From IMG/VR virus record IMGVR_UViG_2671180405_000008: a stretch of 36,457 bases of DNA; one strand, given 5' to 3'. The position numbers were made by a program, and so were the translations under genes. The number at the start of each line of letters is the position of its first letter. The first letter of the stretch is position 1. Origin of the DNA: a virus (taxonomy: Duplodnaviria; Heunggongvirae; Uroviricota; Caudoviricetes). Under the pieces are notes generated by a model. That model made no database searches, was not told the origin of the DNA, and was given only the letters and a program-made list of their open reading frames with translations. Below are positions 1-25,768 of the stretch, piece by piece.

Positions 1-66
1 GCCAATCAGCACGCTGAATCTCCCGTCCAAAAGCACAAATCATGCCATGCAGGCCAGAAACCGCCA

Positions 67-92
67 TTATCTAAAACCTCGGTTTACGAGAA
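67..92. repeat. Serine-invertase crossover site (gix/cix/hix-like 26-bp site), left end of invertible tail-fibre segment, inverted relative to the site at 2983-3008
   Basis: Sequence ttatctaaaacctcggtttacgagaa; its reverse complement ttctcgtaaaccgaggttttagataa matches the site at 2983-3008 at 22 of 26 positions and resembles the gix consensus from memory; an alternate tail-fibre reading frame opens immediately inside it. Confidence 0.6.
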
Positions 93-851
93 CTCGGCAC
101 AAGCGGGGAGAAAATACCGTTACTCAGTACAGCGAATACCTGGACTAATCGACAAACATTCAGCGGTGGCCTTTCTGGTGAACTATCCGGCAATGCTTCT
201 ACAGCTGCAAAATTAAAAACTGCCAGGAAAATAAGCAATGTGGCTTTTGATGGTTCCTCCGATATCACATTAAAAGCAAGTCATGTTGGTGCGTTTGCCT
301 TAGGGAAAACAGGAAGCACCGTTGCGAATGATAAAGCAGTTGGATGGAACTGGAGTAGCGGAGCCTATAACGCAACTATTAGTGGTGCATCAACGTTAAT
401 TATTCATTTTTATATGGGAGAAGGAAGTTGTCCTGCAGCTCAGTTTCGGATTAATTATAAAAATGGCGGTATTTTTTATCGTTCAGCCCGTGATGGTTAT
501 GGTTTTGAAGCCGACTGGTCCGAATTTTACACCACCAGAAAACCTTCAGCAGGAGATGTTGGTGCACTGCCGTTATCTGGTGGTCAACTGAATGGTGCAC
601 TGGGTATCGGAACATCCAGTGCTCTTGGCGGTAATTCGATTGTATTGGGTGATAATGACACGGGCTTTAAACAAAAAGGCGATGGTAATCTGGATGTTTA
701 TGCTAATAACGTCCATGTTATGCGCTTTGTCTCCGGAAGCATTCAAAGTAATAAAACCATAAATATTACGGGACGTGTTAATCCCTCGGATTACGGTAAC
801 TTTGATTCCCGCTATGTGAGAGATGTCAGACTTGGCACACGAGTTGTTTAG
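75..851 (+). CDS. Alternate tail-fibre C-terminal variable cassette (promoterless, silent orientation); reading frame continues through an in-frame TAG at 849-851 to a TAA at 999-1001
   Basis: Frame-3 translation from 75 reads NLGLRELGTS...NTWTNRQTFSGG...VAFDGSSDITLK...SRYVRDVRLGTRVV; the last 48 codons after the TAG (TMKKGVMYEKSGHVITGL...[17 protein letters not shown]) match the conserved P2 H-type C-terminus; no start codon, begins at the crossover site. Confidence 0.6.
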   Translation, partial: NLGLRELGTSGEKIPLLSTANTWTNRQTFSGGLSGELSGNASTAAKLKTARKISNVAFDGSSDITLKASHVGAFALGKTGSTVANDKAVGWNWSSGAYNATISGASTLIIHFYMGEGSCPAAQFRINYKNGGIFYRSARDGYGFEADWSEFYTTRKPSAGDVGALPLSGGQLNGALGIGTSSALGGNSIVLGDNDTGFKQKGDGNLDVYANNVHVMRFVSGSIQSNKTINITGRVNPSDYGNFDSRYVRDVRLGTRVV

Positions 852-1003
852 ACCATGAAGAAAGGCGTGATGTATGAAAAATCAGGCCATGTAATCACGG
901 GGCTTGGTATTATCGGTGAAGTCGATGGTGATGATCCGGCAGTATTCAGACCAATACAAAAGTTAATTAACGGAACATGGTATAACGTATCGCAGGTATA
1001 ATC

Positions 1004-1537
1004 ATGCAGCATTTAAAAAACATTGTCGCAGGTAATCCAAAAACCGTTGAACAATACCAGCTAACAAAGAATTTTGATGTTATCTGGTTATGGTCCGAAG
1101 ATGGAAAAAATTGGCATGAGGAATTAAAAAACTTTCAGGAGGATACAATAAAACTGGCTTACACAGTTGAGGGAATAATTATTGCTATAGACAAGGATGT
1201 ATCAGCAATTAATCCAGAAGGTTTAAGTGTCGTTGAGTTGCCTGATATTACAGCAAATCGCCGGGCTGATATTTCGGGCAACTGGATGTTCAAAGATGGT
1301 GCGGTGATAAAGCGAACTTATACCGAGGAAGAGCAAAGGCAACAAGCGGAAAATGAAAAGCAGAGCCTGCTGCAGCTCGTCAGGGATAAAACCCAGCTGT
1401 GGGACTCTCAGCTACAGCTGGGCATCATTTCCGATGAGAATAAACAAAAATTAACCGAGTGGATGCTCTATGCGCAGAAGGTTGAATCCACAGACACCTC
1501 CAGCCTGCCAGTAACGTTTCCCGAACAACCAGAATGA
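1004..1537 (+). CDS. Tail fibre assembly protein (Tfa, P2 G / Mu U-like), alternate-cassette copy
   Basis: 177 aa starting [14 protein letters not shown]; paralogous to the minus-strand Tfa at 1566-2093; sits directly after the tail-fibre cassette stop. Confidence 0.75.
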
Positions 1538-1541
1538 GAGA

Positions 1542-1568
1542 AGGCCCGCTATCGGGCCTTAATTTTTA
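1542..1568. terminator. Hairpin between convergent tfa genes, possible bidirectional rho-independent terminator
   Basis: aggcccgctatcgggcct stem-loop followed by taattttta, between the plus tfa stop (1537) and minus tfa stop (1566). Confidence 0.4.
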
Positions 1569-2093
1569 TTCAGGCTTTTGTGGCCATTCAGGATTTGCCG
1601 TATCCACACGGCTGACCAGAACACTGTAGCGTTCCCATGCTTCCAGTCGTGTGCGTTCCTCGTCCGTCGCCATATTCAGCCTGACAGCGCGTTCCAGCGG
1701 CTGGATGACTGATTCAGCTTCGGAAAGCAATGCGGCCTTTTGTGATTCGGCCTGTTGTTGCAGTTCCTGTTCTGTATATTCCCTCTTTACTACTTTACCA
1801 TCCAGAAACATCCATTTTCCGTTATTGTCTGCGTGACGATTTGCCGTAATATCAGGAACTTCAACTATGCTTAGCCCTTCAGGATTAATAGTTGAAACGT
1901 CTTTACTGACAGCAACGATGATGTTGTTCTCATCGTAAGCAATTTTTATGGTGTCTGGCTGAAAATTCTTTTGTTCCTCATACCAGTTTTTGCCATCTTC
2001 GCAAAAGAGCCATACCACGCCCGCTTTTTTAGTTAGCTGGTATTGTTCCGGTGTTTTCGGATTCCCGGCCTTAATATTTTTCAGGTGCATCAT
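1566..2093 (-). CDS. Tail fibre assembly protein (Tfa), expressed-orientation copy; start probably at the MMHLKN/MHLKN methionines (2093 or 2090) rather than 2129
   Basis: ORF translation [22 protein letters not shown]...; immediately downstream of the tail-fibre stop at 2095. Confidence 0.75.
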
Positions 2094-2094
2094 C

Positions 2095-4008
2095 TTAAAC
2101 ACTCCCCACGTTGTACCATATTCCCCCAATCAATTTCTGAATTGGCCTTCTGGCAACAGTGTCGACAATATCATCCGCATTGCTGTTAATTGCGGCTGTT
2201 AAAACATAACCTGACGCATCGCCAAAGCCGTAGTCGCGCCATACGTTTTTATATTCAATGCTGCCAAGACGAATATCCCGAACGACATGATTATGCAGCC
2301 ATGTGCTTAACCAGTTGTTTTCCCACACTGAACCATAAATATCGCCACTAGACGCAACTTGCGCACCACTTCCCAGCGCAAATCCCCCATCTGTTTTAAA
2401 AATGAAATCACCACCACCATCTGAACCGTTATTAATATGAACACCATCACCACCGTTATCTTTCCACAAAAACATACGAATTCTTCCGTCTTCGTTGGCG
2501 AATGTAATGTGGTGGCGGTAATTACTTTTTAATCTAAAATTGCTGCCATTAGATTCAATATCTTTATAAAGATGTAATCCTAACTCATCAATATGTCCGA
2601 TGCGCGAACCATTTGAATAGAAGCTAATAATACCATCTCCATCTTGCCTAAATCCGGTGTCGTTATCTCCCAGAACAATGGAGTTTTCACCCAGTGCGTT
2701 ATCAGTAGCTCCAATAGCTAGACCTCCTTTAATTTTGGCCCCGTGGCTGACAGATATAGCACCTGTTCTCAGATTTATAGCGAATGGCCTTAATGGGCCG
2801 ATATTACCGTTTTCGCCTTGTCCTTCAGCCGTCGGAATGAAATGAAGAAAATCTTCTGAACGACGGAAAATTAGACCGAAGGTATCATTGAAAATTCGCA
2901 GCGCATTCACCGTGCCAATTTTCAGTTCTCCGGTCATTTTATCGCCGGAACGCTGAACGGCGTTACCAGCCTTGTTTACCGTTTCCTGTAAACCGAGGTA
3001 TTCGATAACGGCGGCAACGGTCGATTTCGCAAGAATATCCCGCCCGACTTTTGTCAGGGTTGCCAGGCTGGCGACATCATTCCCCGTAAAATACGGAAAC
3101 CTGTCTGCCGCAGTAGCAAGCCCCGCCAGCGCCGTCAGAGTGGCATCTTTCGGTTGCTTACCCGCAAGCGCGTTAGTCATGGTGGTCGCAAAATTCGGGT
3201 CGTTGCCCAGCGCCGCCGCCAGCTCGTTCAGTGTGTTCAGTGCATCAGGCGAAGAGTCTACAAGTGCGGCAATCGCAGCCATAACGAAAGCCGTGCTTGC
3301 GATTTGGGTATTATTCGTTCCCTGTCGCGCAGTTGGTGTTGTTGGCGTTCCGGTCAGTGCCGGGCTGTTTAATGGGGCTTTCTTGTTCGTTTCATCCATT
3401 ACTGCCTTAACGGCTTTTGGTGTCGCTGCCAGCGTTTCAGACGTGCTGTTGGTGGCGTTGCTGAGCTGGACAAGGCCTTTTGCGGTCAGCGAGGCGTCCG
3501 GGTGACGTCGTGACTGTTCATGCTCTTTCAGTTTGTCATCCACGTAATTCACTGTGGCCATCACCATGGTGTTATCCACGGTAAGCGCCACAGTGGCAGT
3601 GCTGGATACGGTCAGAATGGTGCGAAATGTTTGTGCACGTCCGGATCCTTCGGCAACGGTTGGCTTGTAACTTTCGGCAGTATTGCCTACCGCGATCAAA
3701 TCGCCGTGCTCATCAAACACACCAATTTCCCGGATCCAGAATCCGCCCGTTTCAGGAGGAATAACCAGCTCCGCAATAATGTGGTTCTGATGTGTTGCGT
3801 CCAGGGTGACGCGATTAACGGTATGTCGCCACACCTCATGCACAAGACGGGTCTGCTTACTGTCTGGCGTGGGTAAAGTACCGCCGCCGTCACCCACGGC
3901 CATATGTGTCAGGCGGACAGGTTTCCCATCTGGCGCGGTTGCCTGCGCTAATTTTTTTGCACCCGTATCGGTGATAATGGTTTTAAATTTTCGTGTTGTG
4001 GTACTCAT
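2095..4008 (-). CDS. Tail fibre protein (P2 gpH-like), constant N-terminal part 3009-4008 fused to variable C-terminal cassette 2095-2982
   Basis: 637 aa; N-terminus [26 protein letters not shown]... and [16 protein letters not shown]...[21 protein letters not shown] match P2 H from memory; ends [17 protein letters not shown]. Confidence 0.85.
2983..3008. repeat. Serine-invertase crossover site inside the tail-fibre gene (boundary between constant and variable parts)
   Basis: ttcctgtaaaccgaggtattcgataa, gix-like; encodes VIEYLGLQE at the constant/variable boundary. Confidence 0.6.
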
Positions 4009-4010
4009 GC

Positions 4011-4574
4011 TTAATCGTCCGGATAAATGGTAATGACTTCACCGTCGTAAGTTGCTGCTGCCGCGAAAATATCTCCCTGAATCTCCTGAATGATATTCAG
4101 CCCTGTCATGTGGCGGCTGACCGGGCGGGCATCAGCAATCAACCGCTCCATTTCCAGATACATTTCCTCCGTCACGCCACTGTCCAGCGTGCCAACATCA
4201 ATCTTGAATGTTCCGGGTTCGCCGTTGAACTCCCACCACTCAGACACGCGAATGAGGTATCCCAGCGGCTCAATGGCCCGTCGCAGGGCGCTGATGGTTC
4301 CTTTGTGTCGGTGTATCAGCCATGCATCACGAATCACCTGTCGCTTTGTCTCTTCCGGCCAGTTGCGATCCCAGCGGTCAACGGAAAACGCCCAGGCGAG
4401 ATAAGGCAGCAGATGCACCGGGCAGGTGTCCGGCGACCACAGCGTGTTGAGGTCTGCCGGAATGTCTGTAATGCGTGTTCCGACGGCTTCGGCACAACGC
4501 ATGAAATTGCTGGCTGATGGTGGTAACAGTGAATTACTCATTACGCCCACCTTCGCTGATGGTGAATGACTCAC
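4011..4574 (-). CDS. Baseplate assembly protein I (P2 gpI-like); true start may be the internal MSNSLLPP methionine near 4541
   Basis: Translation with LLPYLAWAFSVDRWDRNWPE motif; position between J and H. Confidence 0.8.
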   Translation of the reverse strand: MSHSPSAKVGVMSNSLLPPSASNFMRCAEAVGTRITDIPADLNTLWSPDTCPVHLLPYLAWAFSVDRWDRNWPEETKRQVIRDAWLIHRHKGTISALRRAIEPLGYLIRVSEWWEFNGEPGTFKIDVGTLDSGVTEEMYLEMERLIADARPVSRHMTGLNIIQEIQGDIFAAAATYDGEVITIYPDD

Positions 4575-5430
4575 AGCGCGCCGCCTGTATGTCGCTGATG
4601 GCCATATTCTGTGTGGGTTCGATTATCTCCACGCGTTGCACACCGTGCACATGCAGTGCGGCAGCAATGGCGGACAACGCCACGTCCTGACCGATAAGCC
4701 CCTGCTCAGCCAGCCACTTCCTGAACGACGATTCAGCCGCAGCCAGAATAGGTTCGGATTCCGGACCGGGGTAAAAGTACAGTTTTGCATTCAGCCGCCA
4801 TGTCACGATTCTGGCACTCTGTACGGTCAGGCGGTCGGCCACCGGGCGGGTATCCTCTGCATTCAGAACGGCGCGAACGGTATTAAGCAACGCCTCCGTT
4901 GCTGTGCCGTCGCCCTCAGTGGACAGGATGGAAACCGTCACATTTGCCGGAGACGGACTGATGGCCCGCGCATCGCGCACCAGACCGCTGGCGCTGCGGG
5001 CAAAATACTCGTATGCGCCTGACGGGCCTGCAACACTCAGGCCGTCATACGCCCGCTGCGCCCGCAGTCTCAGCGAGGTGTCGTTCTCCATCACCACGTC
5101 GGTGGTATCCGTTGCCGGAGTGATAACCAGGCGCTTTGTGTTCATATTGCCCGCGAGGTTGTCCAGGTCTGTTCCGGCGCTGTGGCTCAACATGCAGGCG
5201 CGTGCGGCCTCATTGACCCGCTGGCGTAACAGCATTTCACGAAACGACATGGTTTGAGCGATAACGTTCAGGGGTTCCGATTCCAGTTCCAGTGCGGCGG
5301 AGACGACTTCACGCTGTTCGGCGGGATAAGCTGCAATCATCATGGCCTTTGTGTCAGCCAGAATTGCCTCAAAGTCAGGCTCCGCGATGATGGCGGGTTC
5401 CGGTAACTGGGAAAGGTCAACGGCAGGCAT
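4534..5430 (-). CDS. Baseplate assembly protein J (P2 gpJ-like)
   Basis: 298 aa, position between W and I in conserved P2 order. Confidence 0.8.
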   Translation of the reverse strand: MPAVDLSQLPEPAIIAEPDFEAILADTKAMMIAAYPAEQREVVSAALELESEPLNVIAQTMSFREMLLRQRVNEAARACMLSHSAGTDLDNLAGNMNTKRLVITPATDTTDVVMENDTSLRLRAQRAYDGLSVAGPSGAYEYFARSASGLVRDARAISPSPANVTVSILSTEGDGTATEALLNTVRAVLNAEDTRPVADRLTVQSARIVTWRLNAKLYFYPGPESEPILAAAESSFRKWLAEQGLIGQDVALSAIAAALHVHGVQRVEIIEPTQNMAISDIQAARCESFTISEGGRNE

Positions 5431-5433
5431 GAT

Positions 5434-5784
5434 TTACTCCCTCAGCGTGATGGTTAATTCAACATTCTGCATGGTCTGCATGACAGTGCCCGACAGCGTC
5501 ACCCCGGCGTGGCCTCCTGCCTTCCAGACAACGTCGATGGCGTTCAGGGCAATGCGTGGTTCCCATCGTGTCAGTGCAATCACGGTAGCACTCATGCATT
5601 GCAGACGCGTGGTGTTATTCATGGGTTCGTCAATCAAATCAGGCACAAGGCTGCCATATTCCCGTCGCATAACCCGGCTTGCCAGCGGGGTGGTCAGGAT
5701 GTCCCTGACTGACTGTTTCAGGTGCGCCATATCGTTCAGGTTTCCCGTCCCGTCCGGGTTCATTCCTGTGTAGCGGGTTGTCAC
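5434..5784 (-). CDS. Baseplate wedge protein W (P2 gpW / GPW-gp25 family)
   Basis: 116 aa, conserved position between V and J. Confidence 0.75.
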   Translation of the reverse strand: MTTRYTGMNPDGTGNLNDMAHLKQSVRDILTTPLASRVMRREYGSLVPDLIDEPMNNTTRLQCMSATVIALTRWEPRIALNAIDVVWKAGGHAGVTLSGTVMQTMQNVELTITLRE

Positions 5785-6362
5785 TGCGGGCCTCCTGTCG
5801 AATCGCTGCCACCTTTAACGCCACCGTGCTTATGCGTATGCACTGTGATGCCGTTTGAGGTGAAATCGCCGCCGCTGTGCGTGATATTGCCGCTCATCGT
5901 TCCCCCTTTTGTGACGTCAAGCGTCGCTGTTCTCAGAAGGTCTGTGCATTCCACGACAGGCGTGTTCAGTGTCACGCTGATGGATGCCTGCAAAGTGGCC
6001 GTTTTCATGCCGCTTGCGCTCAGTGCGCCTGCGTCCGCGTCGTAGCGGAACACCGCGCCGTCCGGCGCGCTGACCACGATTTCTTTCAGGCTTTTGCCGG
6101 GTGCCGGAATGGCATCACTCCACAGGCTGCCGATTATCATGGCGGTTTCCGGGTTGCCGCCGATGCAGGCAATTGCCACCTGTTCGCCTGGTGATGGCGG
6201 AAACCACACGTTGAAGTCTCCCGCGCGCGTGGTGTTCCAGCGCAGCCAGCCTGTTTCCAGTTCGCCGCTGCGAACGCGCACGCACCAGGATTCCTCATCA
6301 ACTTCAGAGATGATCCCGGTGCGGATGATATTGCTCAGCAGTCGCATGAGTTCTGCGCTCAT
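5781..6362 (-). CDS. Baseplate spike / assembly protein V (P2 gpV-like)
   Basis: 193 aa, conserved order S-V-W-J-I-H. Confidence 0.75.
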   Translation of the reverse strand: MSAELMRLLSNIIRTGIISEVDEESWCVRVRSGELETGWLRWNTTRAGDFNVWFPPSPGEQVAIACIGGNPETAMIIGSLWSDAIPAPGKSLKEIVVSAPDGAVFRYDADAGALSASGMKTATLQASISVTLNTPVVECTDLLRTATLDVTKGGTMSGNITHSGGDFTSNGITVHTHKHGGVKGGSDSTGGPQ

Positions 6363-6994
6363 CGTACAGCCTCCGCAATCCGGCCCAGCACCGTGTTATA
6401 AATCAGGCGCTCATCTGCCTGGCTGATACCCAGCAGCTCACGTACCGGGTAATCGGTGAAAATGCCCGGCGCAACCTGATCGCGCTCACCGAACTGATGA
6501 ACGCGTGCAATACGTGCGGCCACGCCGCTGTAACCCACCGTCACACCGGAAGCATCTGCACGGGCTTTCAGGTAGCGGGCGGTGCGCAGTTTTACGAACA
6601 TGGAGACGCGCCTGGTGCTGTCCTGGTTGATGCGCCGGGTGCGTATTTCCAGAAAACGGTCGATGTCATCCCGGTAAAACGTGCGGATATTGTTTTTATC
6701 CTCATCCCACCCGGTGATGGTTCGCCCGTATTTCCCCGTGTCGTGATGCCAGTTTTTCAGCGTGCGTGCTTCGTTATTCCAGATAAAGCGAATGCGCTCC
6801 TGTATCCGGGTTACGCGGCGTCTGCGTGGTGTCCATGCGGTCCCGTCCGGCGCTTTCTGTGACCGGATACGCGCCTGCTGGGCGCGGCGTAAATCCTGTG
6901 CCAGCTTTCTGGCGATGTTATTAATGGCCTGCTGATTCAGGCTGTCGCGGATAGCCTCAAAGGTTTCATCCACGCGGGTGAATGCCTTATCCAT
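6359..6994 (-). CDS. Putative tail completion / virion morphogenesis protein (gpS-position gene)
   Basis: 211 aa ORF between R (intact in the second copy) and V; assignment is by position, length differs from P2 S. Confidence 0.5.
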   Translation of the reverse strand: MDKAFTRVDETFEAIRDSLNQQAINNIARKLAQDLRRAQQARIRSQKAPDGTAWTPRRRRVTRIQERIRFIWNNEARTLKNWHHDTGKYGRTITGWDEDKNNIRTFYRDDIDRFLEIRTRRINQDSTRRVSMFVKLRTARYLKARADASGVTVGYSGVAARIARVHQFGERDQVAPGIFTDYPVRELLGISQADERLIYNTVLGRIAEAVR

Positions 6995-7068
6995 CGCTTT
7001 CCCCCCACGTCACATCCTGGAATACATGCGACCAGTCGCCTTCGGAAGAGGGCAGGCGGGGTTTTGGC

Positions 7069-8566
7069 TCAATCTTTATAAAGATGTAATCCTAACTCAT
7101 CAATATGTCCGATGCGCGAACCATTTGAATAGAAGCTAATAATACCATCTCCATCTTGCCTAAATCCGGTGTCGTTATCTCCCAGAACAATGGAGTTTTC
7201 ACCCAGTGCGTTATCAGTAGCTCCAATAGCTAGACCTCCTTTAATTTTGGCCCCGTGGCTGACAGATATAGCACCTGTTCTCAGATTTATAGCGAATGGC
7301 CTTAATGGGCCGATATTACCGTTTTCGCCTTGTCCTTCAGCCGTCGGAATGAAATGAAGAAAATCTTCTGAACGACGGAAAATTAGACCGAAGGTATCAT
7401 TGAAAATTCGCAGCGCATTCACCGTGCCAATTTTCAGTTCTCCGGTCATTTTATCGCCGGAACGCTGAACGGCGTTACCAGCCTTGTTTACCGTTTCCTG
7501 TAAACCGAGGTATTCGATAACGGCAGCAACGGTCGATTTCGCAAGAATATCCCGCCCGACTTTTGTCAGGGTTGCCAGGCTGGCGACATCATTCCCCGTA
7601 AAATACGGAAACCTGTCTGCCGCAGTAGTAAGTCCGGCCAGCGCCGTCAGGGTGGCATCTTTCGGTTGCTTACCCGCAAGCGCGTTAGTCATGGTGGTCG
7701 CAAAATTCGGGTCGTTGCCCAGCGCCGCAGCCAGCTCGTTCAGCGTGTTCAGTGCATCAGGTGACGAATCTACAAGGGCGGCAATCGCAGCCATAACGAA
7801 AGCCGTGCTTGCGATTTGGGTATTATTCGTTCCCTGTCGCGCAGTTGGTGTTGTTGGCGTTCCGGTCAGTGCAGGACTATTTAAGGGCGCTTTCTTGTTC
7901 GTTTCACCCATTACCGCCTTAACCGCTTTTGGCGTTGCCGCCAGTGACTCGGAAGTGCTGTTGGTCGCACTGCTGAGCTGTACTATCCCCTTTTTCGTCG
8001 TGCTCGCATCCTCAAGCGCCACGGCGGATGCAATATCCTCTGCCCGTTTTGCTGCTGTCTCGGCGCGCGTTGCCGCGGATTCAGCAGCAACTTTGCTCTG
8101 AGATGCAGCCGTCGCACTGCCTGCCGCCTCTGATGCTTTCGTTGTTGCTGTCGTGGCACTACCTTTCGCTGCTGACGCTTGTCTGGTCGCCTCATCTTTT
8201 GAAGCAGACGCAGATGATGCCGATGACGCCGCTGAACTGGCTGACGATGCGGCTGCTGCCTTAGAGGAAGCAGCATTGTCTGCTGAAGTCTTTGCATTTG
8301 TTTCAGAGGTTTTTGCTGCAGAAGCAGACCTCGCTGCTGCAGTGGCTTGCTCAGTGGCTTTGCCAGCCTTCGTTGTGGCTGTTGAAGCGGATGATGCGGC
8401 GCTTTCTGCCGATTTTCCGGCGGCGGTGGCACTGGCTGAGGCCTGCCCGGCACTTGTTGACGCGGCACTGGCAGATAATGCAGCCGCTGTTTTTGAACCT
8501 GCCGCAGCTGAGGCGCTCTGTCCCGCTGCTGTTTCAGAAGACTTAGCGTTCGTCTCGGACGTTTTA
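7069..8566 (-). pseudogene. Chimeric tail-fibre fragment: Ala/Ser/Thr-rich Stf-like repeats (8566-7980) fused to a diverged H-like constant region and a variable cassette identical to 2560-2982; N-terminus truncated by the IS, C-terminus truncated at the 7070/7072 junction
   Basis: ORF 7069-8598 translation; first 11 codons (MVVSAIASTPH) lie inside the IS terminal repeat; ends HLYKD exactly where homology to copy 1 stops. Confidence 0.6.
7494..7519. repeat. Third copy of the invertase crossover site, same orientation as 2983-3008
   Basis: Identical 26-mer ttcctgtaaaccgaggtattcgataa. Confidence 0.55.
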
Positions 8567-8609
8567 TGAGGTGTACTGGCAATAGCGGACACTACCATTT
8601 GTTCTTTTT

Positions 8610-9428
8610 TTAAGCAGCCATCTGATGATATTTTTCCCTGAAGGCTGCCGGGGAGATATTCCCCAGACGAGAGTGACGACGCTGACGATTGTAGAAAATC
8701 TCAATGTATTCCCGTATTACTGAGATGGCTTCATCCCGGTTATTAAAACGATAGTGGCTCAGGCTCTCATTTTTCAGCGTTCCCCAGAAGCTTTCCATCG
8801 GAGCGTTGTCGTAACAGTTACCTTTACGCGACATTGATGTTTTCAGACCAGACTGCTCCTGTATGACCCGGTAATCGTATGCGCAGTACTGTGAACCTCG
8901 ATCAGAGTGGTGGATTAGCCCGGCAGGTGGGCGCTGGCTCCTGAGCGCCATAAACAGGGCTTTACCTGTCAGCTCTTTTGTCATGCGCTCTCCCATGGCG
9001 TAGCCGACAATTTCGCACGTATAAACATCTTTGATGCCAGCGAGGTACAACCATCCCTCCTGTGTGGCAACATACGTCAGGTCCGCCACCCAGACCTGAT
9101 TTGGTGCTGTAGGAGCGAACGTCTGGTTCAGCAGATTTGGCGCAACTGGCAGATTGTGGTTCGAGTTCGTAGTCGCTCTGAACTTGCGTTTCTGCTTACA
9201 GCGTAGCCTTAGCTCCTTACGAAGACGTGCCAGTCGGTCACGACCAACGATGATGCCATTCTCTGCCAGCTCCGTCTGGAGCCGCCGGGTTCCATATGTT
9301 TCGCGAGTGCGGATATGTGCCACCTTAATCTCCAGTTTTAGCCGCTCATCACTTTGTTTTCTGTCTGAGGGTTCATGCTGTACCCAGTTGTAATAACCGC
9401 TCCTGGATACACCAAATACCTGACACAT
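8610..9428 (-). CDS. IS3-family transposase OrfB (DDE integrase domain)
   Basis: 272 aa; HSDRGSQY and NCYDNAPMESFWGTLK motifs typical of IS3-family OrfB. Confidence 0.85.
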   Translation of the reverse strand: MCQVFGVSRSGYYNWVQHEPSDRKQSDERLKLEIKVAHIRTRETYGTRRLQTELAENGIIVGRDRLARLRKELRLRCKQKRKFRATTNSNHNLPVAPNLLNQTFAPTAPNQVWVADLTYVATQEGWLYLAGIKDVYTCEIVGYAMGERMTKELTGKALFMALRSQRPPAGLIHHSDRGSQYCAYDYRVIQEQSGLKTSMSRKGNCYDNAPMESFWGTLKNESLSHYRFNNRDEAISVIREYIEIFYNRQRRHSRLGNISPAAFREKYHQMAA

Positions 9429-9463
9429 CGCTTCAATGGGAAATTGTTGTCGCCATTGTTCGA

Positions 9464-9766
9464 TTAACGCGTATTTTTCAGCGACTCCTGTGCAAAATAC
9501 GCTGTTGCTTTTTTTAATATATCTCGCTCAAGGCGAGCTTCATTTAACGCCTTACGCAGTTGCAGAATTTCAGATTCCAGTTCAGCCACCGTGCGGGAAC
9601 CAGGAGTACCGAGCCCTTTTCTGGCGGCGGTAACCCATTGTCCTAAAGTGCCTTCAGGAAGAGATAATCGGGAAGCGCCTTCACTGATCGAAAGTTGATT
9701 TTCAAGAACCGTTCTGACAGCTTCGGCTTTGAACTCTTTAGAGTAACGTTGGGTTTTTCTGCTCAT
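9464..9766 (-). CDS. IS3-family transposase OrfA (HTH, leucine-zipper part)
   Basis: 100 aa MSRKTQRYSKEFKAEAVRTV..., recalled as IS600 OrfA. Confidence 0.85.
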   Translation of the reverse strand: MSRKTQRYSKEFKAEAVRTVLENQLSISEGASRLSLPEGTLGQWVTAARKGLGTPGSRTVAELESEILQLRKALNEARLERDILKKATAYFAQESLKNTR

Positions 9767-9827
9767 TATTAGCTCCTTCTGATGCCATTCTATTTCAGGA
9801 AGGAGTGTCCGTTAAACTCAGGCTACC

Positions 9828-11537
9828 TCACTCTGACCAGTCAGCTTCAAAGCCATAACCATCACGCGCTGAACGATAAAAAATACCGCCGTTCCTGTAA
9901 TTCACGCGGAACTGTACAGCAGGGCAGCTCCCCGTATTCATATTGAAGTGGAGGATTAATGTCGATGCGCCACCAATGTTTGCGTTATAGACCCCGCTAT
10001 TCCAGTTCCAGCCAACAGCTTTATCATTTCCGACAGTGCTTCCTGTTTGCCCTAAAGCAAATGCAGGTTGTTGATTTTTCGTGTTGTAGTCTCGTCGCCA
10101 GCCAGGAGCGTAAGCATCACCATGATTAATATAAGTGAATTGAGCGTTAGTAATTCCGCCACCGCTGGACGTGCTCGGCGTGGTAACGCGTATGGTCATT
10201 GCGCCGCGAGTGCCAATAACTTCCACCACAGCACCTGCAAGACAAATATTTCCGCAACCTGTATCTGTAATGACCTTATTATTTGCATAAGCCCATGAGC
10301 CTTTGCACATCCAGTAAGGATGGTTAAATGCTCCCTGACTCTCCAGCCACGAAATAAATTGCGCGGTTGTCCAGACCTGACTATCGCCACCAATATTCAG
10401 CCATGAGCTATATGCGCGGCAGGCACCAATATTTTTGGTGAAGGTATCTTTCCCCGGAATATCTGCGCCGTTCTGGTTTTTCTGTAATGCGCCAGAAGCC
10501 TGATTTACCGTTTCCTGTAAACCGAGGTATTCGATAACGGCAGCAACGGTCGATTTCGCAAGAATATCCCGCCCGACTTTTGTCAGGGTTGCCAGGCTGG
10601 CGACATCATTCCCCGTAAAATACGGAAACCTGTCTGCCGCAGTAGCAAGCCCCGCCAGCGCCGTCAGAGTGGCATCTTTCGGTTGCTTACCCGCAAGCGC
10701 GTTAGTCATGGTGGTCGCAAAATTCGGGTCGTTGCCCAGCGCCGCCGCCAGCTCGTTCAGTGTGTTCAGTGCATCAGGCGAAGAGTCTACAAGTGCGGCA
10801 ATCGCAGCCATAACGAAAGCCGTGCTTGCGATTTGGGTATTATTCGTTCCCTGTCGCGCAGTTGGTGTTGTTGGCGTTCCGGTCAGTGCCGGGCTGTTTA
10901 ATGGGGCTTTCTTGTTCGTTTCATCCATTACTGCCTTAACGGCTTTTGGTGTCGCTGCCAGCGTTTCAGACGTGCTGTTGGTGGCGTTGCTGAGCTGGAC
11001 AAGGCCTTTTGCGGTCAGCGAGGCGTCCGGGTGACGTCGTGACTGTTCATGCTCTTTCAGTTTGTCATCCACGTAATTCACTGTGGCCATCACCATGGTG
11101 TTATCCACGGTAAGCGCCACAGTGGCAGTGCTGGATACGGTCAGAATGGTGCGAAATGTTTGTGCACGTCCGGATCCTTCGGCAACGGTTGGCTTGTAAC
11201 TTTCGGCAGTATTGCCTACCGCGATCAAATCGCCGTGCTCATCAAACACACCAATTTCCCGGATCCAGAATCCGCCCGTTTCAGGAGGAATAACCAGCTC
11301 CGCAATAATGTGGTTCTGATGTGTTGCGTCCAGGGTGACGCGATTAACGGTATGTCGCCACACCTCATGCACAAGACGGGTCTGCTTACTGTCTGGCGTG
11401 GGTAAAGTACCGCCGCCGTCACCCACGGCCATATGTGTCAGGCGGACAGGTTTCCCATCTGGCGCGGTTGCCTGCGCTAATTTTTTTGCACCCGTATCGG
11501 TGATAATGGTTTTAAATTTTCGTGTTGTGGTACTCAT
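9828..11537 (-). CDS. Tail fibre protein H, second copy, with a different variable C-terminal cassette that is cut by the IS insertion (stop codon formed at the IS boundary)
   Basis: 569 aa; identical to copy 1 up to LGLQETVN then diverges; C-terminal ...GGIFYRSARDGYGFEADWSE matches the silent cassette at 75-851 up to the IS joint. Confidence 0.75.
   Translation of the reverse strand: MSTTTRKFKTIITDTGAKKLAQATAPDGKPVRLTHMAVGDGGGTLPTPDSKQTRLVHEVWRHTVNRVTLDATHQNHIIAELVIPPETGGFWIREIGVFDEHGDLIAVGNTAESYKPTVAEGSGRAQTFRTILTVSSTATVALTVDNTMVMATVNYVDDKLKEHEQSRRHPDASLTAKGLVQLSNATNSTSETLAATPKAVKAVMDETNKKAPLNSPALTGTPTTPTARQGTNNTQIASTAFVMAAIAALVDSSPDALNTLNELAAALGNDPNFATTMTNALAGKQPKDATLTALAGLATAADRFPYFTGNDVASLATLTKVGRDILAKSTVAAVIEYLGLQETVNQASGALQKNQNGADIPGKDTFTKNIGACRAYSSWLNIGGDSQVWTTAQFISWLESQGAFNHPYWMCKGSWAYANNKVITDTGCGNICLAGAVVEVIGTRGAMTIRVTTPSTSSGGGITNAQFTYINHGDAYAPGWRRDYNTKNQQPAFALGQTGSTVGNDKAVGWNWNSGVYNANIGGASTLILHFNMNTGSCPAVQFRVNYRNGGIFYRSARDGYGFEADWSE
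10511..10536. repeat. Fourth copy of the invertase crossover site, same orientation as 2983-3008; coincides with the left edge of the second 4.1 kb repeat
   Basis: Identical 26-mer; homology between the two blocks starts here. Confidence 0.55.
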
Positions 11538-11539
11538 GC

Positions 11540-12103
11540 TTAATCGTCCGGATAAATGGTAATGACTTCACCGTCGTAAGTTGCTGCTGCCGCGAAAATA
11601 TCTCCCTGAATCTCCTGAATGATATTCAGCCCTGTCATGTGGCGGCTGACCGGGCGGGCATCAGCAATCAACCGCTCCATTTCCAGATACATTTCCTCCG
11701 TCACGCCACTGTCCAGCGTGCCAACATCAATCTTGAATGTTCCGGGTTCGCCGTTGAACTCCCACCACTCAGACACGCGAATGAGGTATCCCAGCGGCTC
11801 AATGGCCCGTCGCAGGGCGCTGATGGTTCCTTTGTGTCGGTGTATCAGCCATGCATCACGAATCACCTGTCGCTTTGTCTCTTCCGGCCAGTTGCGATCC
11901 CAGCGGTCAACGGAAAACGCCCAGGCGAGATAAGGCAGCAGATGCACCGGGCAGGTGTCCGGCGACCACAGCGTGTTGAGGTCTGCCGGAATGTCTGTAA
12001 TGCGTGTTCCGACGGCTTCGGCACAACGCATGAAATTGCTGGCTGATGGTGGTAACAGTGAATTACTCATTACGCCCACCTTCGCTGATGGTGAATGACT
12101 CAC
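11540..12103 (-). CDS. Baseplate assembly protein I, second copy
   Basis: Protein identical to 4011-4574. Confidence 0.8.
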   Translation of the reverse strand: MSHSPSAKVGVMSNSLLPPSASNFMRCAEAVGTRITDIPADLNTLWSPDTCPVHLLPYLAWAFSVDRWDRNWPEETKRQVIRDAWLIHRHKGTISALRRAIEPLGYLIRVSEWWEFNGEPGTFKIDVGTLDSGVTEEMYLEMERLIADARPVSRHMTGLNIIQEIQGDIFAAAATYDGEVITIYPDD

Positions 12104-12959
12104 AGCGCGCCGCCTGTATGTCGCTGATGGCCATATTCTGTGTGGGTTCGATTATCTCCACGCGTTGCACACCGTGCACATGCAGTGCGGCAGCAATGGC
12201 GGACAACGCCACGTCCTGACCGATAAGCCCCTGCTCAGCCAGCCACTTCCTGAACGACGATTCAGCCGCAGCCAGAATAGGTTCGGATTCCGGACCGGGG
12301 TAAAAGTACAGTTTTGCATTCAGCCGCCATGTCACGATTCTGGCACTCTGTACGGTCAGGCGGTCGGCCACCGGGCGGGTATCCTCTGCATTCAGAACGG
12401 CGCGAACGGTATTAAGCAACGCCTCCGTTGCTGTGCCGTCGCCCTCAGTGGACAGGATGGAAACCGTCACATTTGCCGGAGACGGACTGATGGCCCGCGC
12501 ATCGCGCACCAGACCGCTGGCGCTGCGGGCAAAATACTCGTATGCGCCTGACGGGCCTGCAACACTCAGGCCGTCATACGCCCGCTGCGCCCGCAGTCTC
12601 AGCGAGGTGTCGTTCTCCATCACCACGTCGGTGGTATCCGTTGCCGGAGTGATAACCAGGCGCTTTGTGTTCATATTGCCCGCGAGGTTGTCCAGGTCTG
12701 TTCCGGCGCTGTGGCTCAACATGCAGGCGCGTGCGGCCTCATTGACCCGCTGGCGTAACAGCATTTCACGAAACGACATGGTTTGAGCGATAACGTTCAG
12801 GGGTTCCGATTCCAGTTCCAGTGCGGCGGAGACGACTTCACGCTGTTCGGCGGGATAAGCTGCAATCATCATGGCCTTTGTGTCAGCCAGAATTGCCTCA
12901 AAGTCAGGCTCCGCGATGATGGCGGGTTCCGGTAACTGGGAAAGGTCAACGGCAGGCAT
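12063..12959 (-). CDS. Baseplate assembly protein J, second copy
   Basis: Protein identical to 4534-5430. Confidence 0.8.
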   Translation of the reverse strand: MPAVDLSQLPEPAIIAEPDFEAILADTKAMMIAAYPAEQREVVSAALELESEPLNVIAQTMSFREMLLRQRVNEAARACMLSHSAGTDLDNLAGNMNTKRLVITPATDTTDVVMENDTSLRLRAQRAYDGLSVAGPSGAYEYFARSASGLVRDARAISPSPANVTVSILSTEGDGTATEALLNTVRAVLNAEDTRPVADRLTVQSARIVTWRLNAKLYFYPGPESEPILAAAESSFRKWLAEQGLIGQDVALSAIAAALHVHGVQRVEIIEPTQNMAISDIQAARCESFTISEGGRNE

Positions 12960-12962
12960 GAT

Positions 12963-13313
12963 TTACTCCCTCAGCGTGATGGTTAATTCAACATTCTGCA
13001 TGGTCTGCATGACAGTGCCCGACAGCGTCACCCCGGCGTGGCCTCCTGCCTTCCAGACAACGTCGATGGCGTTCAGGGCAATGCGTGGTTCCCATCGTGT
13101 CAGTGCAATCACGGTAGCACTCATGCATTGCAGACGCGTGGTGTTATTCATGGGTTCGTCAATCAAATCAGGCACAAGGCTGCCATATTCCCGTCGCATA
13201 ACCCGGCTTGCCAGCGGGGTGGTCAGGATGTCCCTGACTGACTGTTTCAGGTGCGCCATATCGTTCAGGTTTCCCGTCCCGTCCGGGTTCATTCCTGTGT
13301 AGCGGGTTGTCAC
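12963..13313 (-). CDS. Baseplate wedge protein W, second copy
   Basis: Protein identical to 5434-5784. Confidence 0.75.
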   Translation of the reverse strand: MTTRYTGMNPDGTGNLNDMAHLKQSVRDILTTPLASRVMRREYGSLVPDLIDEPMNNTTRLQCMSATVIALTRWEPRIALNAIDVVWKAGGHAGVTLSGTVMQTMQNVELTITLRE

Positions 13314-13891
13314 TGCGGGCCTCCTGTCGAATCGCTGCCACCTTTAACGCCACCGTGCTTATGCGTATGCACTGTGATGCCGTTTGAGGTGAAATCGCCG
13401 CCGCTGTGCGTGATATTGCCGCTCATCGTTCCCCCTTTTGTGACGTCAAGCGTCGCTGTTCTCAGAAGGTCTGTGCATTCCACGACAGGCGTGTTCAGTG
13501 TCACGCTGATGGATGCCTGCAAAGTGGCCGTTTTCATGCCGCTTGCGCTCAGTGCGCCTGCGTCCGCGTCGTAGCGGAACACCGCGCCGTCCGGCGCGCT
13601 GACCACGATTTCTTTCAGGCTTTTGCCGGGTGCCGGAATGGCATCACTCCACAGGCTGCCGATTATCATGGCGGTTTCCGGGTTGCCGCCGATGCAGGCA
13701 ATTGCCACCTGTTCGCCTGGTGATGGCGGAAACCACACGTTGAAGTCTCCCGCGCGCGTGGTGTTCCAGCGCAGCCAGCCTGTTTCCAGTTCGCCGCTGC
13801 GAACGCGCACGCACCAGGATTCCTCATCAACTTCAGAGATGATCCCGGTGCGGATGATATTGCTCAGCAGTCGCATGAGTTCTGCGCTCAT
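13310..13891 (-). CDS. Baseplate spike protein V, second copy
   Basis: Protein identical to 5781-6362. Confidence 0.75.
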   Translation of the reverse strand: MSAELMRLLSNIIRTGIISEVDEESWCVRVRSGELETGWLRWNTTRAGDFNVWFPPSPGEQVAIACIGGNPETAMIIGSLWSDAIPAPGKSLKEIVVSAPDGAVFRYDADAGALSASGMKTATLQASISVTLNTPVVECTDLLRTATLDVTKGGTMSGNITHSGGDFTSNGITVHTHKHGGVKGGSDSTGGPQ

Positions 13892-14523
13892 CGTACAGCC
13901 TCCGCAATCCGGCCCAGCACCGTGTTATAAATCAGGCGCTCATCTGCCTGGCTGATACCCAGCAGCTCACGTACCGGGTAATCGGTGAAAATGCCCGGCG
14001 CAACCTGATCGCGCTCACCGAACTGATGAACGCGTGCAATACGTGCGGCCACGCCGCTGTAACCCACCGTCACACCGGAAGCATCTGCACGGGCTTTCAG
14101 GTAGCGGGCGGTGCGCAGTTTTACGAACATGGAGACGCGCCTGGTGCTGTCCTGGTTGATGCGCCGGGTGCGTATTTCCAGAAAACGGTCGATGTCATCC
14201 CGGTAAAACGTGCGGATATTGTTTTTATCCTCATCCCACCCGGTGATGGTTCGCCCGTATTTCCCCGTGTCGTGATGCCAGTTTTTCAGCGTGCGTGCTT
14301 CGTTATTCCAGATAAAGCGAATGCGCTCCTGTATCCGGGTTACGCGGCGTCTGCGTGGTGTCCATGCGGTCCCGTCCGGCGCTTTCTGTGACCGGATACG
14401 CGCCTGCTGGGCGCGGCGTAAATCCTGTGCCAGCTTTCTGGCGATGTTATTAATGGCCTGCTGATTCAGGCTGTCGCGGATAGCCTCAAAGGTTTCATCC
14501 ACGCGGGTGAATGCCTTATCCAT
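13888..14523 (-). CDS. Putative tail completion / virion morphogenesis protein (gpS-position), second copy
   Basis: Protein identical to 6359-6994. Confidence 0.5.
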   Translation of the reverse strand: MDKAFTRVDETFEAIRDSLNQQAINNIARKLAQDLRRAQQARIRSQKAPDGTAWTPRRRRVTRIQERIRFIWNNEARTLKNWHHDTGKYGRTITGWDEDKNNIRTFYRDDIDRFLEIRTRRINQDSTRRVSMFVKLRTARYLKARADASGVTVGYSGVAARIARVHQFGERDQVAPGIFTDYPVRELLGISQADERLIYNTVLGRIAEAVR

Positions 14524-14983
14524 CGCTTTCCCCCCACGTCACATCCTGGAATACATGCGACCAGTCGCCTTCGGAAGAGGGCAGGCGGGGTTTTGGCTCC
14601 GGCAGGTGTTCTGCCTGCGGTGTGCCCTGACTGCTGCGCGTGATGCGAACGCGTTCCCGCAGGGGGAGCGTAAACAGGAGATCGGCGCTGTCATCGTCAT
14701 TGATAACGGCGGAAAATTTGATGTCCTGATTACGCTCCGGATTGAGCAACAACTGTGGCTGATTTTCGGATAACCACGCCAGCAGCGGCAGCGTGAGGTC
14801 GTCCAGCTCTCCGGCGTAATCCATGACAAACATCACTATCTGATAGCGGTAAACAAACGATGGGGTTTCTCCGGTCGTTTCAATGTTGCCGCTCTCCACG
14901 AAAATGGTGAATTTTTCCGGGTTGGCATGACACCACCGGCATGAACGGGTCATGGCTTCACGCAGGGAATCAGTTTTCAGCAT
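14516..14983 (-). CDS. Tail completion protein R (P2 gpR-like)
   Basis: 155 aa MLKTDSLREAMT...; position between lysis genes and S; only its last ~80 bp are present in the first repeat copy (6987-7070). Confidence 0.65.
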   Translation of the reverse strand: MLKTDSLREAMTRSCRWCHANPEKFTIFVESGNIETTGETPSFVYRYQIVMFVMDYAGELDDLTLPLLAWLSENQPQLLLNPERNQDIKFSAVINDDDSADLLFTLPLRERVRITRSSQGTPQAEHLPEPKPRLPSSEGDWSHVFQDVTWGESDG

Positions 14984-15290
14984 GGTTGTTGTCCTCGTTG
15001 TTCAGTCGTTGCAGCCTGCGCTGTTCCAGTAATTCAATGGCCCGCTTATCGGCGTTACAGGTTTCCAGTGCGTCCATGAGGCTGTCGCTCCATATCCCGA
15101 TGTTTCCCCATGATGGCGTCACCGGAAACGGCGGGGGAAGTACGGGGGCGGTCAGCCCTTCCGGGATGAAACGGAACGACGGCGGCGGCGCGGACGCGTT
15201 CTGCGTGCTGGTGCAACCGCTCAGTAAAGCGAGCGTCAGGAACAGCGCGGGCACATGCATCTGTCGTGATATCGTTGCGTAGCTGTTCAC
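14970..15290 (-). CDS. Outer-membrane spanin lipoprotein (LysC/Rz1-like), starts inside the LysB gene in another frame
   Basis: Lipobox ALFLTLALLSGC followed by Pro-rich region; true start probably the internal MHVPALF methionine. Confidence 0.5.
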   Translation of the reverse strand: MNSYATISRQMHVPALFLTLALLSGCTSTQNASAPPPSFRFIPEGLTAPVLPPPFPVTPSWGNIGIWSDSLMDALETCNADKRAIELLEQRRLQRLNNEDNNHAEN

Positions 15291-15528
15291 GTCGGATTTC
15301 CCCTTCCTGTTGTCGGTTCTGGCGCGCTGTCATGACGTCACGCAGTACACCGGATGCGGTGCTGATGATGGTGCCGGCCTCTTTCAGGGTCCGGCTGTAA
15401 TCGTCCAGTTGCGCCTGTGTATAACGGTTGTGTCCGTCTTCCTGCCCCAGTCTGAATGTCTGCCAGAGTGTTATGGTCAGCAGCGTGAGGACGGTCAGTG
15501 CCATCATCAGGATGTAACGCACTTTCAT
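15055..15528 (-). CDS. Inner-membrane spanin (LysB/Rz-like)
   Basis: N-terminal transmembrane helix MKVRYILMMALTVLTLLTITLW then charged coiled-coil-like region; overlaps the lipoprotein ORF. Confidence 0.55.
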   Translation of the reverse strand: MKVRYILMMALTVLTLLTITLWQTFRLGQEDGHNRYTQAQLDDYSRTLKEAGTIISTASGVLRDVMTARQNRQQEGEIRREQLRNDITTDACARAVPDARFTERLHQHAERVRAAAVVPFHPGRADRPRTSPAVSGDAIMGKHRDMERQPHGRTGNL

Positions 15529-15613
15529 GACTGGCCTCCGGTGTCACGTAAGCACCATGCACGAAAATCAGTACGACGGTTAACCAGTCCCTGTGAGCGT
15601 TCGCCGCCGCTGT

Positions 15614-16069
15614 TCACGAAGTCAGTCTGTTGCACATGTCAGGCCAGTTGTGCGCCTGTGCATGTTTCCAGATAGTGGTGCGGTGGTAGTTACGGTTCTT
15701 ATCCCTGAACCACATAAGATTTCTGCATCCAAGATTAAAGGCGGCATCTGTCATTGCCTCAAACGCGGACTGTGGCATGGCGTTGCCGCTGAAGTTCTGA
15801 TTTATGCAGTTTTCTGCATGTTGCATATCATTAACCCAGCGCCCGGCGACTTCCGTTTCGGTGTACAGACGATTTTCCACATGCCCGGTCGAGCCGCACC
15901 CCACGGTCATTACCCCGGCAATATCCCGGTAAGGCGTTGCGCGACAGTCCTCCCATGTGGCAATGCGGATTTGCGCTTCCGGGCTGGTCCGGAGTTTGTG
16001 AGGGGCAATGGAGAACCCCAGCGCCACAATGGCGGCTACGGCGTAACGTTTAACGGGCAGCTTTATCAT
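15614..16069 (-). CDS. Endolysin, T4-lysozyme-like (GH24), probable signal-arrest-release (SAR) type
   Basis: E-x8-D-x5-T catalytic spacing in ATWEDCRATPYRDIAGVMTVGCGST; weakly hydrophobic Ala/Gly-rich N-terminus AVAAIVALGFSIA. Confidence 0.7.
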   Translation of the reverse strand: MIKLPVKRYAVAAIVALGFSIAPHKLRTSPEAQIRIATWEDCRATPYRDIAGVMTVGCGSTGHVENRLYTETEVAGRWVNDMQHAENCINQNFSGNAMPQSAFEAMTDAAFNLGCRNLMWFRDKNRNYHRTTIWKHAQAHNWPDMCNRLTS

Positions 16070-16352
16070 GTGTATCGTTATCCCGCAGAATGTTCAGAGC
16101 CTGACGCTCACTGTCGTGAAGTGGCCGTGCGTCTGACTGCGCCAGGATACTGGCGATGAGTTCATTGCGACGCTGCATGGCGGTTTCCATCAGGCGGCGA
16201 TGTCGCCAGGCATGTAATGCAGACAGAGAACCGAGTAACAACCCGGCAAGGGCGATTTTTTCACTGATGGTCATCACGCCTATTGTGGTGGCTGTGACTG
16301 ATGCCCAGAAGGTGATCCAGTCACTCACCCGCAGAAAAAAACCTGTTACCAT
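16050..16352 (-). CDS. Holin (two predicted TM helices; possibly pinholin partner of the SAR endolysin); start taken at internal MVTGFF methionine
   Basis: Hydrophobic segments WITFWASVTATTIGVMTI and IALAGLLLGSLSALHAW; position between X and endolysin. Confidence 0.5.
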   Translation of the reverse strand: MVTGFFLRVSDWITFWASVTATTIGVMTISEKIALAGLLLGSLSALHAWRHRRLMETAMQRRNELIASILAQSDARPLHDSERQALNILRDNDTHDKAAR

Positions 16353-25666: not shown

Positions 25667-25768
25667 CGTTTACGGGATTCTGAAATCCCGTTTTTGCCTG
25701 TTTTGTGCGCGCTTCATATATCGCTGCGCGTTTTTTGCTCATTTACGGGATTCGTGAGTCCCGTTTCT
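25667..25768. promoter_or_regulatory. Candidate parC-like centromere/promoter: two 20-bp palindromes 73 bp apart upstream of the parM-like gene
   Basis: acgggattctgaaatcccgt (25672-25691) and acgggattcgtgagtcccgt (25745-25764), both preceded by tttacgggattc; second copy lies in the last codons of gene A. Confidence 0.3.

Follow-up and report, generated by a model that had tools for sequence, protein, structure and literature searches.

Invertible tail-fibre cassettes are known from several systems. In the PinB/B segment of Shigella, as in the Gin/G segment of phage Mu and the Cin/C segment of phage P1, alternative C-terminal cassettes are inverted together with tfa, and it is textbook knowledge that Din-type crossover sites are placed in frame where the constant part of the fibre passes into the variable part. 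Din invertases normally act in cis on inverted sites at a scale of a few kilobases, as Gin and Hin do, and they are interchangeable. The PinB/B-segment system was described by Tominaga et al. (1991), and its sites are listed in PMC3241671, where Table 3 gives bixL as TTCCTGTAAACC GA GGTATTCGATAA. The tail-fibre protein gpH of phage P2 was described by Haggard-Ljungquist, Halling and Calendar (1992), as referred to in PMC9594776 and PMC3945230. That tail fibres of different phages have a module in common is a classical observation, which the same two articles trace to Haggard-Ljungquist et al. (1992) and Sandmeier et al. (1992), and by their account Sandmeier (1994) credited this sharing to invertase-associated exchange. 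Module exchange among unrelated phages around invertase sites was thus already published in 1992-94 (PMC3945230), and the mosaic build of stf with its in-frame invertase site has been known for three decades.

The DNA analysed here (36,457 nt; "the window") is the entire contig CXBQ01000042.1 of the Shigella sonnei draft assembly GCA_001250835.1 and holds a P2-like prophage beside btuC, the genes of which (Q/P, O, N, M, L, the lysis genes, and R, S, V, W, J, I and H) are all on the minus strand. The ORF listing of the window includes a reading frame of 509 codons at 7069-8598 (minus strand), which the earlier note took to be a chimeric tail-fibre fragment in which Stf-like repeats had been fused to a P2 H-like domain. 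Our analysis shows that 7072-8565 is an internal piece of the ordinary, already annotated lambdoid stf gene of S. sonnei. The features of this locus are as follows.

7072-8565, minus strand: codons 267-764 (of 918) of stf, a separate contig of 1494 bp (99.8% identity at the nucleotide level; 496 of 498 amino acids)
8005-8565, minus strand: Ala/Ser/Thr-rich Stf shaft of 187 residues (72% A+S+T), recognised by composition and recurring motifs
7521-8004, minus strand: conserved central module, including a Phage_fiber_2 repeat (7882-8004), common to Stf, P2 H and the S-type fibres of Mu and P1
7495-7520, plus strand: 26-bp Din-family crossover site, identical to bixL, in frame, with ..IEYLGLQE.. 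encoded on the minus strand
7072-7494, minus strand: start of the variable C-terminal cassette HvB (141 codons), identical to 2560-2982 with 0 mismatches
7071: unclosed scaffold gap, N as deposited and A in the window, first base of the stop of the 509-codon ORF
8566: unclosed scaffold gap, N as deposited and A in the window, between the end of IS600 and the stf piece
8567-9830, minus strand: IS600, 1264 bp, IS3 family, with orfA at 9464-9766 and orfB at 8610-9428, outside the tail-fibre gene
1-3116, minus strand: in finished genomes, the continuation of the stf piece (remainder of HvB, tfa, tfa', inverted cassette, bixR-like site)
1566-2129, minus strand: tfa
1004-1537, plus strand: tfa' (inverted)
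240-851, plus strand: inverted alternative cassette
67-92, inverted: bixR-like site, TTCTCGTAAACCGAGGTTTTAGATAA in reverse complement, matching bixR at 24 of 26 positions

Comparison of the window with CXBQ01000042.1 as deposited revealed exactly two differences, at 7071 and 8566. The scaffold is made of three contigs (1-7070, 7072-8565 and 8567-36457), of which the stf piece is the middle one. The 509-codon ORF begins at 8598, within the terminal 32 bases of IS600, so that the insertion sequence contributes the ATG and the first 11 codons, and its TGA stop (7071-7069) includes the masked N. Both ends of the ORF, and with them both apparent truncations, are therefore located at scaffold gaps; no sequence supports either truncation, and the notion of one continuous, truncated gene is not confirmed. 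Sister scaffolds from the same project likewise carry single Ns where blocks join. An exact look-up of the 509-residue product found no identical gene product on record, as would be expected of an ORF that owes its existence to reading the Ns as A.

The parent gene is intact, with no Ns, in three finished S. sonnei chromosomes (53G, HE616528.1; CP044191.1; UGZB01000001.1), where it belongs to a trp-linked lambdoid prophage with the order tape measure, M, L, K, I, J, lom, stf, tfa, inverted tfa' and inverted cassette, leading towards trpA. In all three, window positions 8565-7072 correspond to 10799-12292 of the locus and window positions 3471-1 to 11381-14851, the two matches being collinear and overlapping; the 99.8% nucleotide identity of the stf piece to 10799-12292 is also that to positions 7712-9205 of a sister assembly. 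In these chromosomes stf continues unbroken into DNA equivalent to window 3116-1, and HvB into the equivalent of window 2559-1. The frame is open along the whole stf piece (no stop in 498 codons), which makes up the middle 54% of the 918-codon gene, and the shared 496 residues are aligned with residues 267-764 of the 918-aa Stf, a protein that in 53G and other strains has the same Ala-rich region, central module, bixL and cassette. The source collections list this protein as 'prophage tail fiber N-terminal domain-containing protein [Shigella sonnei]', and it is found on 277 contigs, finished chromosomes being included among the records that carry it; WP_347176641.1 is a member of the same length in its 90% cluster. 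The 918-aa parent has a PF08400 domain (phage_tail_N) and no PF12571; PF08400 is absent from the stf piece, which begins at codon 267 at the assembly gap. An NCBIfam scan of the stf piece, the 918-aa Stf and H gave no family match. The finished E. coli genomes AR_0069 and EC958 contain 7163-8565 as one piece, 96% identical, within a J-lom-stf-tfa context. Placement after J-lom with tfa next is therefore true of the parent gene in finished S. sonnei and of its E. coli relatives, and the position after J-lom is common to the stf of phage lambda as well; the window does not display this context, the stf piece being an isolated contig.

With regard to the Ala/Ser/Thr-rich part, the low-complexity repeats had rightly been described as resembling those of Stf. 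The shaft, with 38% Ala, 22% Ser and 12% Thr, contains KTSETNAK twice and recurrent ASSAS and SASAA motifs; at the DNA level almost no true tandem repeats were detected in it, only two marginal arrays. Intact stf holds no exact repeat of at least 20 nt, and repeats within the gene thus do not account for the end of the contig at 8565. A homologue search with the Ala-rich part alone returned only 37 matches, low complexity saturating the word index. The region is collinear with annotated lambdoid stf genes, and among its relatives that keep an N-terminus PF08400 (the lambda-Stf type) is present and PF12571 (the P2-H type) occurs in none. The gpH of P2 has a PF12571 tail-collar N-terminus and no Ala-rich shaft, and P2 H as a whole offers no counterpart of this region; neither the stf piece nor its parent, on the other hand, has PF12571 or a baseplate-gene context, whereas both P2-like H genes in the window have PF12571. 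The Ala-rich region is Stf-derived and stands outside the H family, so that the refuting condition named in the earlier note does not apply.

The resemblance to the H constant region, which had been placed from about 7980 onwards, is also real. Positions 7480-7980 are 93.8% identical to 10497-10997, the stretch 7980-7521 is about 92% identical to the constant region of the P2-like H, and 7629-7980 has 91.8% nucleotide identity to the local copy of that gene. Compared with the other H-type stretch, 7072-7980 is 96.7% identical to 2560-3468, with all 30 mismatches confined to 7525-7970, and 7072-7524 is 100% identical to 2560-3012. At the protein level, PF03406 (Phage_fiber_2) matches residues 199-239 of the ORF (E 4e-18), and the central module, with its KG(I/L)VQLS... 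sequence, is nearly identical to residues 235-391 of P2 H, similarity in the variable part being scattered. Because this module is shared by Stf and P2 H, its presence does not tell the two families apart. In phage lambda, residues 220-434 of Stf are 80% identical to residues 154-368 of the ORF, an alignment that takes in the last part of the shaft and all of the "H-like" module to ..EYLG, and residues 183-260 align weakly with the Ala-rich part (56% over 78 aa). Judged from these alignments, Stf has the "H-like" module as a part of its own, and this holds for phage lambda too. Unlike the stf piece, lambda has neither a crossover site nor an invertible cassette, and its receptor-binding C-terminus is unrelated. 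The proposal of an Stf/P2 H chimera made locally does not hold, as the 1494 bp lie uninterrupted in a single intact stf and the module belongs to lambda Stf too. No fusion took place at this locus; the mosaic is of ancient date and a property of the gene family. Nor does the window provide the direct evidence of shuffling at the invertase site that the earlier note had seen in it: the piece matches intact stf, and its ends are gaps.

The crossover site itself is present, one base away from the 7494-7519 first given for it. Its sequence, TTCCTGTAAACCGAGGTATTCGATAA, occurs at 7495-7520, 2983-3008 and 10512-10537 in one orientation, with 0 copies expected by chance, and the stf of the finished genomes holds the identical 26-bp site. 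With its central GA dinucleotide, the site lies inside the fibre gene. In the finished genomes the bixR-like site is found 2.9 kb downstream of the bixL of stf, and the DNA between them gives, within window 1-3116, Pfam matches to Caudo_TAP and gp37_C. The organization thus follows that of the Mu, P1 and B-segment systems, in that alternative cassettes and tfa genes face each other between the sites, but the PinB-like system here has its invertase gene in the P2-like prophage and not beside stf. No invertase gene was detected in the window, no invertase-sized gene is called within 10 kb downstream of stf at the trp locus of the finished genomes, and the E. coli relatives have only a recombinase remnant at the stf segment. 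In sister and finished genomes, on the other hand, the P2-like prophage encodes a 195-aa serine recombinase that matches Gin (PDB 3UJ3 and 4M6F, E ~1e-100). Since the stf segment adjoins no intact invertase, its inversion would need the P2-like PinB-type enzyme, and we infer from the interchangeability of Din invertases that it could take place in trans. In the three finished chromosomes examined, the stf locus has one and the same orientation; the P2-like B segment was found in both states, and IS600, with a GTT target duplication, interrupts the P2-like bixR of one finished genome.

Together, these data lead us to favour, with a probability of roughly 0.82, the reading that the stf piece is a stand-alone contig of an ordinary stf and that its truncated and fused appearance is a scaffold-gap artefact. 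The piece would be a short-read contig from the middle of stf in the trp-adjacent lambdoid prophage, which scaffolding set between the contig ending in IS600 and the contig starting inside the P2-like R, with a single N on each side; reading through these Ns as A then creates a false ORF of 509 codons and a gene seemingly cut at both ends. In its intact form the gene leads from the PF08400 N-terminal attachment domain through the Ala/Ser/Thr shaft and the central module to the in-frame bixL and an exchangeable receptor-binding cassette, served by a tfa chaperone gene, with a second cassette and a second tfa placed in inverted orientation downstream, ahead of the bixR-like site. By analogy with Gin, Cin, Pin and PinB, a Din-family invertase may flip this segment and so switch receptor specificity.

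The same reading bears on the cassette, which had been called identical to the expressed one. The identity stands, without a mismatch, but the two copies are most simply the same DNA: 2560-3116 duplicates 7072-7628 over 557 bp, and these stretches most probably represent one genomic locus written twice, which would have been reached a second time by contig extension through the crossover-site repeat. Not everything fits easily. Three site contexts were assembled (stf-type with HvB, H-type with HvB, and H-type with HvA), which runs counter to our preferred reading. In addition, the stf piece differs from intact stf at three nucleotides (8014, 7616 and 7613), two of which are H-type bases; these H-type bases, at -96 and -93 from the site, lie 13 bp from an stf-type base at -109. 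Such a mix could not be invented by read k-mers alone and is therefore probably a real strain difference, so that the isolate probably departs slightly from the finished genomes, for example by a short gene-conversion tract. The H of contig 8567-36457, for its part, has an stf-type base at -5 from the site. The patchwork of alleles and the varied positions of the breaks point to contig ends driven by repeats and to ambiguous threading at the crossover region.

The neighbouring contigs are relevant to the alternatives. The H gene at 9828-11537 runs into IS600, which was identified by Pfam matches to HTH_Tnp_1 and rve and by 99.9% identity to the IS600 of the finished genome CP026836.1, an IS600-family transposase being annotated in a further public record. 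A block of 4.1 kb (2968-7070) repeats 10497-14599 with one internal SNP and leads to a second H (2095-4008), encoding 637 aa, and then to tfa. Positions 2957-7070 are 100% identical to the R-to-H stretch of CP026836.1. The R-S-V-W-J-I-H block is single in stretches of 20.9 kb from CP026836.1, CP065611.1, UGBG01000002.1 and UFYX01000005.1, four chromosomal records in which H is joined to other cassettes. The 637-aa H, which combines a P2-like constant part with the stf cassette, is limited to four draft contigs of 20-50 kb.

The strongest alternative, which we nevertheless regard as unlikely, is that a real exchange took place in this strain, the P2-like H and stf having swapped their variable cassettes at bixL or within about 130 bp of it, by a PinB-type invertase or by RecA. 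On the P2 side such an exchange would yield the 637-aa H at 2095-4008, a fibre of P2 type equipped with a lambdoid cassette and chaperone, and on the other side a reciprocal stf product. In agreement with this, within contig 1-7070 a P2-like constant region that is 100% identical to the H of a finished genome passes, with no N in between, into the stf cassette of the trp locus, the identical 637-aa product appears in four draft assemblies, and a reciprocal join is seen at the end of a sister contig, where the stf constant part is followed by HvA and then IS600. The sites are identical, the flanking patches of alleles resemble conversion tracts, and published opinion credits stf exchanges to invertases (PMC3945230). 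However, no contig above 50 kb carries the 637-aa product, and the H of finished genomes has HvC, a third cassette, or HvA. When stf and H of finished genomes are compared over the 230 bp around the site, there are seven differences on the constant side, and 87 bp and about 39 bp next to the site are free of differences; because of these difference-free stretches, short-read assemblers can swap partners there. In the P2-like contig 8567-36457, the stf-type base at 5 bp from the site is a sign of such mis-threading, and an exchange between two prophages would be out of keeping with the usual action of Din invertases in cis on inverted sites a few kilobases apart.

It is of note that the 4.1-kb stretch is present twice, which is unusual for an assembler that collapses repeats and could reflect a genuine duplication, although we consider a real duplication in this isolate quite improbable.

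A further alternative, for which we would give long odds, is that the scaffold is correct and stf a remnant, truly cut at codon 266 by IS600 and cut again 141 codons into the cassette by the junction of a duplication of about 4.5 kb (R'-S-V-W-J-I-H). The gene would then be a dead pseudogene whose bixL could still be used, and a rearrangement or adjacent deletion by the insertion sequence would also have joined stf to the P2-like prophage. As a true junction between IS600 and stf predicts, the IS600 contig stops exactly at the last base of the element (8567), with the stf piece about 0 bp away, and in a sister assembly that has the identical P2-like/IS600 contig, lambdoid J'-lom-stf again follows the same IS600 end. 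Shigella genomes are rich in IS-driven rearrangements, and the IS600 copy inside bixR in a finished genome speaks for activity in this region. But both junctions are Ns with no bridging sequence, and because IS600 is multi-copy (it matches one related E. coli genome at 17 places), read-pair links through it are ambiguous. Furthermore, the lambdoid contigs of sister drafts have three different starts in J, all arbitrary, and in one of these cases IS600 is missing altogether; one sister draft mixes in an stf paralogue that is 87% identical; the 5' end of the stf piece likewise lies near the break of another draft (10691 versus 10799 in the coordinates of the finished stf locus), and in finished S. 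sonnei stf is intact and the P2-like tail block single. Neither the IS600-stf nor the stf-R' arrangement occurs in the complete genomes of E. coli, a collection that excludes Shigella and hence gives weak evidence on this point. Two more specific histories, a tandem duplication of 12 kb, joined illegitimately at 7070/7071 and followed by deletion between direct bixL sites, which had rested on self-alignment and on 2-5 bp of microhomology at that junction, and an adjacent-deletion model for IS600, were dropped once the "odd base" at 7071 proved to be N in the record.

These findings carry a caution, as single-N contig joins read as bases yield convincing but false "chimeric" or "truncated" genes. 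Tail-fibre genes are especially prone to this, their shared modules and crossover sites being repeats that short reads cannot resolve. Only a real hybrid of H with the stf cassette would be modestly new; were the exchange real, it would be a cross-lineage cassette exchange caught in the act, as Sandmeier proposed in 1994. From the point of view of the prophages themselves, two unrelated elements of S. sonnei carry an identical bixL, and a single PinB-type invertase could therefore act on both.

Positions 7071 and 8566 are A in the window and N in the deposited contig, and these are the only two mismatches between the two across 1-21537; open reading frames or junctions spanning 7071 or 8566 are unreliable. 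The features bearing on the reading of this region are the following:

2968-7070 and 10497-14599: two copies of a 4.1-kb repeat, containing R' (84 nt), S, V, W, J, I, and the constant part of the P2-like tail fibre gene H
8567-9830: IS600, adjoining HvA, the second variable cassette of H, at 9830/9831
67-92: degenerate crossover site, inverted, TTATCTAAAACCTCGGTTTACGAGAA

The two copies of the 4.1-kb repeat differ internally by a single nucleotide (3013 G versus 10542 A), and the boundary of the copy at 2968-7070 falls exactly at the 7071 gap. Because the R'-S-V-W-J-I-H block occurs once per chromosome in the stretches of finished Shigella sonnei chromosomes that were read, the repeat is probably scaffold redundancy, a genuine duplication being a possible alternative.

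The 637-amino acid "expressed" H (2095-4008, considered together with 1-3012) has a P2-like constant half followed by a variable half that finished genomes place, along with the chaperone genes tfa and tfa' and the inverted cassette, within the lambdoid side-tail-fibre (stf) locus at trp. The 637-amino acid product was found in four draft contigs only. Either assembly produced it as a chimera spanning the crossover region, or it is a real recombinant. The three copies of the crossover site bixL have a patchwork of alleles within 131 bp of them (7390-7650, 2880-3140, and 10410-10670): the stf piece (7072-8565, minus strand) carries H-type bases at -96 and -93 relative to bixL, and the H gene of the large contig carries an stf-type base at -5. 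Such a pattern would fit short gene-conversion tracts or mixed reads from both loci.

In a sister draft scaffold (L006), a piece inserted at 15208-16175 shares just 87% identity with the N-terminal region of stf, so that S. sonnei must have at least one paralogous stf, able to confuse assembly and scaffolding. Most database relatives of the Ala-rich stf region (P0002-P0036) are entries named "tail fiber protein, partial" on contigs of 400-900 bp, and this stretch evidently breaks short-read assemblies throughout E. coli and Shigella. A few of these entries are plainly misnamed, e.g. "short-chain fatty acid transporter."

At 24678-25637 and 25714-28536, comparison with the annotated prophage that occupies the btuC-ihfA site in O26 assigned to the P2-like prophage ParM-like segregation and partition genes next to its replication endonuclease gene, an unusual cargo for P2-type phages.

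With respect to the inversion system, the reverse complement of the site at 67-92 matches the crossover site bixR at 24 of 26 positions, with the central GA/TC kept, and leftward of it lie the opening few bases of DNA that in E. coli relatives is a recombinase remnant. No intact invertase was found in the window. IS600 at 9830/9831 reduces H to 569 codons in the window; in the finished chromosome CP026836.1, a copy of IS600 (L021, 15516-16779) lies inside bixR of the same P2-like prophage, with a GTT target duplication, and this insertion within bixR should lock the B segment in that prophage.
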